6,545 bases of DNA from a virus. Its lineage: Duplodnaviria > Heunggongvirae > Uroviricota > Caudoviricetes. The stretch lies in IMG/VR virus record IMGVR_UViG_2681813274_000007; one strand, given 5' to 3'. Positions 3,001-6,000 of the stretch are shown in pieces. The first letter of the stretch is position 1; each line of letters starts with the position of its first letter. Made by a program: the position numbers.

Positions 3001-6000
3001 GCCGATTTTCCGGCGGCGGTGGCACTGGCTGAGGCCTGCCCGGCACTTGTTGACGCGGCGCTGGCAGACGACGCAGCCGCTGTTTTTGAGCCTGCCGCAG
3101 CTGAGGCACTCTGTCCCGCTGCCGTTTCAGAAGACCTGGCGTTCGTCTCGGACGTTTTGGCCGCCTTCGCAGAATTTGCAGCCGCCGTCGCCGAGGAAGC
3201 TGCGCTACTGGCGCTTGATGATGCGTTCGTTTCTGATGATTTTGCCGCCTCTTTTGAAGCCGACGCATCCCGGGCTGAGGTGGCAGCTTCTGACGCTTTC
3301 GTGGTCGCGGTGGATGCAGAAGTGGCTGCTGATTGTTGTGACGCTGCCGCATTCGTTTCTAACGTTTTCGCCGCACCGGCACTGGTAGCCGCCGCGCTTT
3401 TTGAGGACTCTGCAGCGGCAGCACTTTTTGAGGCTTCAGTGGCCTTTGTTGATGCCGTTCCTGCGCTGGAAGACGCTGACTGAGCCGACGAAGCGGCCTG
3501 TCCGGCTGACGTGCTGGCTGCACGTGCTGAATCTGCAGCATCAGTCGCATGGGTTGCCGCCTCACGGGCTGATGTGCTGGCATCGCTGGCTGATTTCTTC
3601 GCGGCTGCCGTGTTCTGTGCCACCGCGGACGCGTTACGCGCCACCTCTTCCACCATCAGCTCAAAACGGCGCAGTGCCTCCGGACGGGCATCATCCTCCG
3701 TCATGGCACCGAGAAAATCATTCAGCGTACCGGGTCGGGAATCTTCATACACGGTGATGGTCCCGGCATGTGACGGCGGGAATCCTTCCACCAACAGAAT
3801 AACGCTGTACTGACCGTACTCAACGTCCATGCTGTAACGCCCGGCTTCATCCGGATTTTCTGAGGCCAGCGTGTTCACCACCACCGTGGTGCTGTTACGT
3901 TTTGCTTTCAGCTGGATTGTGCAGTTCTGTACCGGTTTTCCTGTGCCGTCTTTCAGTACACCTGAAATCTTTACTGCCATATTCACCCCACAAAAAAGCC
4001 CGCCTGAACCGGCGGGCTGTCATAACACTGTGTTACCTGGCTAATCAGAATTTATAACCGACACCCACGATGAAACCGTCAGTGCGCCAGAGACGTGTTG
4101 CTGTGGCGACCGTCATCACTTCCGGTCAGCACATCGTGCGTTTTCCCCTTATTGTCAGTTACGCGGATATAATCCCCGGAAAAAGTCGACACACGGCTGT
4201 AAGCCACACCCGCCATCGCATACGCGCTGAACCATTCATTCACGCGCACAGACGGCCCCGCCATCACGCTGAACCAGCGGTTACGCACGGAATCTTCATG
4301 CCAGCGGGTATCGCTGTAACGGGTCAGCTGGCGATTCTTGTCTCCTGCATAGCTGAATGACGTCACCAGCCCCAGCGTATCCGTAAACTCATAACGGTAT
4401 TTCACGTTAATCCCGTTCAGATCATCACTGCCGGGAACGTTGGTCCGGGCATGAAGATACCCCGCGCTCAGCGTGGACTGATGTTCAGACGCCCATGCAG
4501 GCGCACCGGATACGGCCAGACAGATGGCTGCGGACAAAATGGCTGCACAAACTTTACGCATAATTACCTCTCGCTTTTCTGCAATAAAAAAGGCGTCATT
4601 CCTGACGCCATTTATTGGGGTTATAAATATTTCAACGAATACTGATGCCGGAAGCCGCTTTTTTGGTCACAATCACCGTACAGTCGGTGATATTGCCTGC
4701 CCCCTGATTGCCTTTCTGGAAAATCTTAAACTCCAGAGTGACGCTACCACCACCACTAGGCATATCAATAACTGCACTGTAACTACCGGGAATGGCACCT
4801 TTAGTTTCTCTGGATGCGATTAATACGCCGTTTTTGCGAACTTCAAAACCATAACCCGTGTATCGCGTGCCTCCTGGGTTATTTCCGCTCCCCGGATCGT
4901 CATACGCTATACCGTTAAAAATAATGGGCGGAATAATAATCTGGCGGTCAAAGTTATGATCATCGCTTATGGTGACTGTAACCGTCCCGTTTGGTGTTTC
5001 CGTGTTACCCCACGTACCAGCCTGTTTCGGAAATGATTTGGATACAGCTTTAACGAAGTCACCTCTGACCTGAGTCGCCTCCAGCATGCCCTTAATCGTA
5101 CAGTTTTCATTTACCGTGACATTGTTGAGCGTCCCGGCGTTCGCATTCACACTGCCACTGATATCCGCATTTTTAGCGGTCAGCTTTCCGTCCGGAGTCA
5201 GGGAAAATGCCGATGGATTTCCACCGCTGGTAATGGTGGGGGCCGTCAGGCGTTTCAGGAACACGTCGTTCATGAATATCTGATCGCCCTGACCAACAAA
5301 CATCGGTTTTGTGTTGCCATTCGCAGGATTAACCATCGCAATCCTGTCCGCCGCCAGCAGCACCTGACTCTGCATGCCGTCAGGGGTGTTCTCAATACCG
5401 GCACCAATACCCGCGATATAAAGGCGTCCGTCCTGCATCTGCTGCAGCTTCACAGCCCACATGCTGTTCAGGTTATTATTTGTATCAACCTGAACCTTCT
5501 GTATCTGCTGAATTGCCGCACTCTGGTCTTCCAGTTTCTTATTGACGGTCTGCGTGATTTCATTGCTGACATCCGTAATGGACGTCCTGATTTCAGCCAG
5601 GTCAGGCGCAAGCTGACCGTTATCAATCTGCGTCCACAGCTCCTGAGCCAGATGGGTTTTCCCTATCTCGCCTTTGAAAAAATCCAGATAACCGGATGCA
5701 TCATCACTCGGCTGACCAACAGCCTCCACGAATGCCGATTTGCCAACGGTGTTCACACTGCGGATATAAAAGTAATAATCATGGCCCGGTTTGATATTGA
5801 TACTGGCGGCTATCCAGTACAGCGCCGTGCCAAGATAGCGTGCTGTGGTTTCAACCTGCCTGATATCCGCAATCCGCTTTTCCGAGAACCAGAACTCAAA
5901 CTGTACCGTCGGATCATAAACCGCAAGATGCGGCGTGGCGGTTATCTGAAAATAGCCCGGCGTCAGCTCAATCCGCGACAGCGCTGCCGGTGCGGCAATC

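Follow-up and report, generated by a model that had tools for sequence, protein, structure and literature searches.

Which outer-membrane protein would be recognised by a lambda-like phage whose central tail fibre differs from that of lambda at its very end? The question is raised by a 6,545-nucleotide stretch of viral DNA (Caudoviricetes; IMG/VR record IMGVR_UViG_2681813274_000007), hereafter the window. It holds a distal tail module from a lambda-like prophage, comprising the C-terminal 637 residues of the fibre protein J, together with lom, stf and tfa. An earlier interpretation made from the DNA alone, without database searches (the sequence-only reading), had proposed that the end of J was swapped relative to the LamB-binding end of lambda J and that the phage would use another receptor, the identity of which could not be inferred from sequence. 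This last statement proved too pessimistic. In the window J, the receptor-binding domain (RBD) is nearly identical to that of phage 434 and, because of this near-identity, a receptor can be assigned: the 434-type J found here most likely uses OmpC, and not LamB.

J is a four-segment mosaic

The J open reading frame (4632..6545) exits the right end of the window, and its 637 visible codons form a single unbroken frame that aligns with lambda J residues 529–1132 (BLASTP) and harbors, in this order, the Pfam domains Ig_J, Ig_J_second, Phage_Tail_Tip and Ig_GpJ_C. The protein strings quoted in the sequence-only reading were all present in the translation of this minus-strand frame. Domain names were taken from the gpJ map of Ge & Wang 2024 (PMC11101478), which distinguishes two FNIII domains, an alpha-helical shaft (~809–861), a beta-prism 'central straight fibre' and an Ig-like RBD. 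In the residue numbering of the window J, of which residues 1–285 correspond to lambda 529–813, the protein divides as follows:

4635-6545, minus strand: J, C-terminal 637 codons, with the stop codon at 4632-4634
5691..6545, minus strand: segment A (J 1–285), end of the hub region plus FNIII-1/FNIII-2, 96.5% identity to lambda, Pfam Ig_J and Ig_J_second
5286..5690, minus strand: segment B (J 286–420), alpha-helical shaft and upper central straight fibre, alternative allele, 40.0% identity to lambda
5100..5285, minus strand: segment C (J 421–482), conserved lower central straight fibre, 90.3% identity to lambda
4635..5099, minus strand: segment D (J 483–637), RBD of the 434/h434 allele class, 36.0% identity to lambda J 983–1132

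J is thus a four-segment mosaic, lambda-like in its FNIII region and again in the lower central straight fibre. Segment A is 96-97% identical to lambda and to every other phage compared, and segment C, the block through which J had been described as lambda-like, is conserved at 87-98% in lambda, 434, the h434 hybrid, cdtI, Evi, 2B8, mEp460 and the GPEC657 prophage. The divergence that had been placed at 4635-5095 extends over 4635-5099, i.e. the last 155 residues, where alignment to lambda yielded 36% identity with 17 gap columns rather than the >90% identity that would have spoken for a lambda-type C-terminus. The upstream segment suspected of having diverged as well maps to 5286-5690 (40% identity) and carries a 28-residue insertion relative to lambda (~nt 5532-5624). 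At the DNA level, identity to lambda drops from 84-100% to 28-64% at ~nt 5105 and lies between 6 and 71% across 5286-5645; G+C content is 59% in segment A vs 48% in segment D. The shift of J from lambda-like to diverged is accordingly abrupt, segmental and far past what chance would produce.

Segment C serves as the junction where one RBD allele is swapped for another. The same stretch has been put to use experimentally: Brodel et al. 2024 (PMC11338833) fused the C-termini of two natural prophage gpJ proteins, A8 and 1A2, to lambda J at residue 964, a position that falls inside segment C, and obtained particles directed to OmpC.

The receptor-binding domain belongs to the phage 434 class

A tblastn search of deposited phages with segment D returned 74 records at 90% identity or more, the next match being Salmonella phage Fels-1 at 45%, with lambda at 36%. 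The 434-type RBD is thus a discrete class. Its members by megablast include phage 434 itself (OL657226, OL657227), 'Lambda h434 imm21' (OM418627) and the Stx2c phage 2851. The window RBD matched that of phage 434 at 148/155 residues (95.5% identity, 0 gaps) and that of Lambda h434 imm21 at 94.8% (0 gaps over 155 residues); identity reached 98.1% in cdtI and 99.4% in Evi and 2B8, and PhiR34_1, mEp332 and Ayreon were ~95% identical over the C-terminal 250 residues of J. Loop lengths were invariant throughout the class. Judged by these matches, the window RBD is the classical, already known h434 host-range allele of J. The seven residues that set it apart from 434 are located at RBD positions 22, 26, 27, 37, 126, 128 and 133.

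The J protein of the h434 hybrid is itself informative, in that all diagnostic positions up to residue 681 are of the lambda type and those from residue 752 onward of the 434 type. Since only 12 lambda/434 differences fall within residues 752–985, the h434 substitution contains no strongly diverged part of J other than the RBD. One of the seven variable positions, RBD 133 (J residue 615, 4701-4703), is occupied by Gly in the window, cdtI, Evi and mEp460, by Arg in 434 and by Trp in the h434 hybrid, and the J of Lambda h434 imm21 further displays a D1050N change relative to 434. Both changes in the hybrid could be host-range changes selected in the laboratory.

To place this class among others, ~90 homologs sharing the conserved stem were clustered. 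The query for this homolog search consisted of the stem plus the RBD; a search with the RBD alone returned nearly only fragments of the same class. The homologs fell into at least seven RBD classes, including those of lambda, A8 and 1A2-like proteins, each 36-47% identical to that of the window. Identity of the window allele with that of the A8 chimera was considered and rejected (41.7% identity, using the A8 sequence of PDB 9wca), as was identity with 1A2 or the 1A2-like class (~34-38%, the 1A2 sequence being a noisy reading from the PMC11338833 supplement).

Among known systems, phage 434 J (OL657226) and the h434 hybrids (OM418627) resemble the window not only in an RBD free of indels, set behind a conserved lower fibre, but also in the gene order J-terminator-lom-stf. 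Phage 434 differs from the window in its lambda-type short shaft (40.7% identity in segment B, with a 28-residue gap) and in a short stf of 437 aa, against 1,029 aa and a lambda-like C-terminus in the window. Closer over the whole of J are cdtI (AB285204, orf18) and the prophage of E. coli GPEC657, the J proteins of which (1,165 aa) match segments A to D at 95.8-97.2%, 99.3%, 98.4% and 96.8-98.1%, respectively, with only scattered point differences; the C-terminal half of the window J is 98-99% identical to that of cdtI. The exact combination of segments is therefore already present in phage cdtI. Phage 434 and the h434 hybrid have been sequenced, and the h434 host range has, according to the reviews cited below, been textbook lambda genetics for decades. 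As a discovery, the allele is of small significance.

A gpJ fold with four length-variable loops

Three comparisons agreed in identifying segment D as a genuine member of the RBD family. The Pfam profile PF12421 (Ig_GpJ_C) scored 90.3 bits, well over its cut-off of 26.2, with J 501–636 spanning positions 1–134 of 135, and the J frame ends one residue past this match, placing the RBD at the extreme C-terminus. A phmmer search of the PDB with segment D alone retrieved A8 gpJ (7e-28) and lambda gpJ (6e-20). Finally, an AlphaFold2 monomer model of the RBD was all-beta (pLDDT 82.8, pTM 0.76) and its top four Foldseek matches were 9wcb, 8xcj, 8xck and 9wca (TM 0.76-0.79), the next best structure scoring 0.48 or less. 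These entries correspond to A8 gpJ with OmpC (9wcb), lambda gpJ with LamB (8xcj) and closed states (9wca, 8xck). Structure prediction, which had been proposed as a check on the sequence-only reading, thus returned the gpJ RBD fold, so that segment D represents the gpJ domain in diverged allelic form rather than a foreign domain. Lambda J (NP_040600; 8xcj, 8xck, 8iyk) shares its domain order and fold with the window J (TM of the RBD model to 8xcj and 8xck, 0.76-0.78), but differs in an RBD of only 36% identity, in indels within four variable loops, in a shaft 28 residues shorter and in its receptor, LamB. The RBDs of A8 and 1A2 (9wca, 9wcb), which come from natural E. coli prophages, likewise share the conserved stem and the fold (TM 0.77-0.79) and are OmpC-directed, but belong to other allele classes.

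The variable loops were located as follows:

4986..5027, minus strand: variable region 1 (J ~507–520), in part predicted as strand, corresponding to the hotspot at lambda residue 1012
4860..4910, minus strand: variable loop 2 (J ~546–562), the longest among all classes compared
4779..4805, minus strand: variable loop 3 (RETKGAIPG; J ~581–589), between predicted strands
4683..4718, minus strand: variable loop 4 (J ~610–621), the shortest among all classes compared

Region 1 bears a 2-residue insertion exactly at lambda 1011/1012, a column that shows indels when seven RBD classes are compared, and substitutions within the 434-type class at RBD positions 26, 27 and 37. Loop 2 bears a 6-residue insertion at ~lambda 1044–1048, mostly off the predicted strands, loop 3 a 1-residue indel near lambda 1078, and loop 4 a net 4-residue deletion (lambda ~1099–1114) as well as within-class variation at RBD positions 126, 128 and 133. 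In lambda gpJ, four bottom loops, L1–L4, enter LamB (Ge & Wang 2024, PMC11101478), and Maddamsetti et al. (PMC6646904) identified lambda J 1012, 1048, 1077 and 1107 as indel and specificity hotspots from natural homologs and OmpF-gain experiments. The indels of the window RBD relative to lambda coincide with all four published hotspots and lie largely between predicted strands. This loop preference was restricted to indels, since sequence divergence from the other RBD classes showed no clear difference between loops and strands (33-41% vs 32-49%).

A further feature of the class is a Tyr at J residue 568 (RBD position 86, ~4842-4844; YTGYGFEV). Six other RBD classes, including those of lambda, A8 and 1A2-like proteins, share a cysteine in the strand that follows loop 2 (Y-S-x-C-x-L), which the class of the window lacks.

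OmpC as the most likely receptor

Replacing lambda J with the tail-fibre gene of 434 has been reported to confer binding to OmpC, the receptor used by 434 (Chatterjee & Rothenberg 2012, PMC3509688; Ge & Wang 2024, PMC11101478). Together with the 95.5% identity of the two RBDs, this report argues in favor of a receptor other than LamB for the window J, as the sequence-only reading had suggested. Moreover, PhiR34_1, mEp332 and Ayreon, all members of the class, were recorded on K-12 hosts, indicating that the receptor is a surface component of K-12.

How such a fibre would work may be sketched by analogy with the lambda gpJ-LamB (8xcj) and A8 gpJ-OmpC (9wcb) complexes. Three beta-sandwich RBDs would cap the central fibre formed by the J trimer, their variable bottom loops entering a trimeric porin. 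Binding to the porin would splay the bases of the RBDs, and the splaying would be passed on as a twist of the beta-prism fibre; following the mechanism described for lambda (PMC11101478), the helical shaft would then flip, the FNIII arms would dissociate and the tail tip would open for DNA ejection. OmpC as the receptor of the window variant, the trimeric mechanism and a working tail are what we infer from these precedents. Taken as a whole, an explanation in which a mosaic J carries at the fibre tip a 434-type RBD that engages a trimeric porin, most likely OmpC, appears to us to be well founded and probable.

Several observations nevertheless weigh against this explanation. Most of the seven differences from 434 are located within or next to variable regions 1 and 4, where lambda J touches its receptor. 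OmpC is polymorphic, and the A8 and 1A2 chimeras accept different OmpC variants (Brodel et al. 2024, PMC11338833), so that the range of OmpC alleles recognised by the window RBD, or even the porin, could differ. The h434 hybrid also has the lom, stf and tfa genes of 434, and the record alone therefore cannot map OmpC dependence to the RBD; this mapping rests on classical genetics cited in reviews. The N-terminal 528 residues of J lie beyond the window and lom is broken, which may signal prophage decay. As for the literature on the relatives, one paper describes OmpC as only 'secondarily used' by lambdoid mEp phages, a search for receptor data on cdtI, mEp460, mEp332, Evi, 2B8, Ayreon and the PhiR phages retrieved nothing specific, and a 2026 receptor-prediction preprint covers the GpJ of Drexlerviridae, the 434-type class falling outside it.

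Three other explanations were weighed against this background. That the loop substitutions have shifted the specificity of a 434-class RBD, restricting it to particular OmpC variants or redirecting it to OmpF or a host-specific porin, draws on the clustering of these substitutions at regions 1 and 4, where four point mutations suffice for lambda to use OmpF (PMC6646904), on the different OmpC variants accepted by A8 and 1A2 although both use OmpC (PMC11338833), and on RBD position 133, where the window has G, 434 has R and the h434 hybrid has W. Set against an identity of 95.5% to 434 without indels, class-wide identical loop lengths, and the occurrence of near-identical variants (99.4% in Evi and 2B8; ~95%, over the C-terminal 250 residues, in PhiR34_1, mEp332 and Ayreon) in phages of which several were recorded on K-12 hosts, such a shift seems rather unlikely. 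Even less can be said for an RBD that would still bind LamB through a different sequence, which we regard as highly improbable: unrelated or distant J C-termini can share a receptor, as illustrated by non-lambdoid mEp phages that use LamB and by the A8 and 1A2-like classes, both linked to OmpC in spite of a mutual identity of 56%, but none of the four variable loops has the length seen in lambda, and the literature has lambda of h434 host range binding OmpC instead (PMC3509688, PMC11101478).

The window J may, whatever its ancestry, be a remnant that no longer adsorbs in a decaying prophage. The frameshifting 83-bp deletion in the neighboring lom, the fact that only part of J is visible, and the position of the GPEC657 module, with its tail fibre assembly gene annotated tfaQ, beside ydfJ, a site that we take to be that of the defective Qin prophage, are all consistent with decay. 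Yet the 637 J codons are uninterrupted and 98-99% identical to cdtI J, stf is intact at 1,029 aa and lom is a non-essential accessory gene. A remnant is thus conceivable, if on the doubtful side, and would concern the present activity of J while leaving the identity of its domain untouched. Returning to the 434-type RBD as a probable OmpC ligand, its 38-42% identity to the A8 and 1A2-like RBDs, longest loop 2, shortest loop 4 and lack of the otherwise conserved cysteine raise the idea of a third, structurally uncharacterised gpJ route to OmpC, in which the loop substitutions of the window (RBD positions 26, 27, 37, 126, 128 and 133) could tune the OmpC variant or porin recognised and, separately, the long shaft might alter reach or triggering; in this full form, the proposal is speculative and unlikely to hold. 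To our knowledge, the structure of a 434-type RBD has not been solved, whereas those of lambda and A8 have, and a 434-type RBD-OmpC complex would complete the picture of one fold reading different porins.

Shaft allele, assortment and prevalence in E. coli

The domain-level mosaicism that had been proposed for J was borne out by the independent assortment of segments B and D among phages. Phages 434, Evi, 2B8 and mEp460 combine a lambda-type short shaft (38.5-40.7% identity to the window in segment B) with a segment D of 95.5-99.4% identity, whereas cdtI and the GPEC657 prophage match the window in both (99.3% in segment B and 96.8-98.1% in segment D). In the homolog clusters, both shaft alleles were found paired with both 434-type and A8-type RBDs, and the long allele also with 1A2-like RBDs. 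A monomer model of segment B, used for secondary structure only because of its low confidence (pLDDT 61.8, pTM 0.29), displayed helices over J 283–363, including the 28 inserted residues; based on this model, the shaft would be approximately four heptads longer than that of lambda. Because it combines without restriction with several RBD classes, the long shaft might change how far the tail tip reaches or how it is triggered, although no report of a functional consequence of this allele was found in the literature.

The abundance of the alleles was next determined in 5,426 complete E. coli genomes (ecoli_genomes collection). The 434-type RBD was present in 2,113 of them (39%) and the long shaft in 3,609 (67%), above any single RBD allele counted. 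The RBD of lambda itself (query, lambda excerpt nt 3452-3901) was found in 98 genomes, all at 99% identity or more, and the five matches listed were laboratory strains (DE3 strains as well as derivatives of K-12 and B). Lambda's LamB-type RBD thus appears to be rare in natural prophages, a rarity whose listed cases are laboratory lysogens, and it is the 'divergent' 434-type allele that is the common natural one. The description of the C-terminus as swapped or divergent therefore holds relative to lambda but not as a general label, given these counts and the shared fold. Protein clusters of the 434 type, with up to 1,400 members each, comprise E. coli, E. albertii and Shigella sonnei sequences, and many converting phages of the Stx1a, Stx2a and Stx2c types also carry the allele. 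In practice, annotators may now name OmpC as the probable receptor of this J allele, which ~39% of complete E. coli genomes contain.

Gene context of J

Of complete genomes, that of E. coli GPEC657 came closest, with 96.6% identity across the window. In GPEC657, the module is part of a prophage that adjoins ydfI and a truncated ydfJ and whose tail fibre assembly gene is annotated tfaQ (GPEC657 excerpt 1-4963), a neighborhood that is presumably the place in the K-12 chromosome where the defective Qin prophage resides. The recognisable genes of the window all lie on the minus strand, and its features other than J are:

4592..4609, minus strand: intrinsic-terminator-like hairpin and T run (GGCGTCAGGAATGACGCC TTTTTTATTG), 23 nt 3′ of the J stop codon
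4079..4561, minus strand: lom (Ail/Lom outer-membrane protein), shortened by an 83-bp deletion, Pfam Ail_Lom profile positions 1–159 of 199
897..3986, minus strand: stf, side tail fibre gene, 1,029 aa from a GTG start, Pfam phage_tail_N, Phage_fiber_2 and Collar
103-897, minus strand: tfa, tail fibre assembly gene, mostly masked by N runs at 106-393 and 401-608

A rho-independent terminator is annotated at the position equivalent to the hairpin in mEp460 and phage 434. The lom frame encodes 160 aa compared to 199 aa in close relatives, among them cdtI and GPEC657, where the gene is full-length. Relative to the closest complete genome, 83 nt are missing between two CGCCAG copies (~4085-4090) and, this number not being a multiple of three, the 3′ end of lom is frameshifted; the coding sequence of the last strand (..GFIVGVGYKF) persists out of frame just past the stop codon.

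The side fibre gene stf also contains a lambda-like MAVKIS start at 3980, and its C-terminal 233 residues (795–1027; 897-1595, minus strand), including His-rich repeats, are 70% identical to the C-terminus of lambda Stf. The side fibre of Ur-lambda has been described as OmpC-binding. If J targets OmpC, both adhesins of the window phage, J and Stf, may thus be directed at the same porin, an arrangement that was deliberately avoided in the engineered particles of Brodel et al. 2024 (PMC11338833). A search for tandem repeats in stf yielded one weak array alone (3013-3066). The central third of the gene (~2300-3600) is a long Ala/Ser/Thr-rich low-complexity stretch of 60-63% G+C, which gives rise to long spurious open reading frames in other frames or on the opposite strand, such as 2576-3352, 2621-3388 and 2734-3483.

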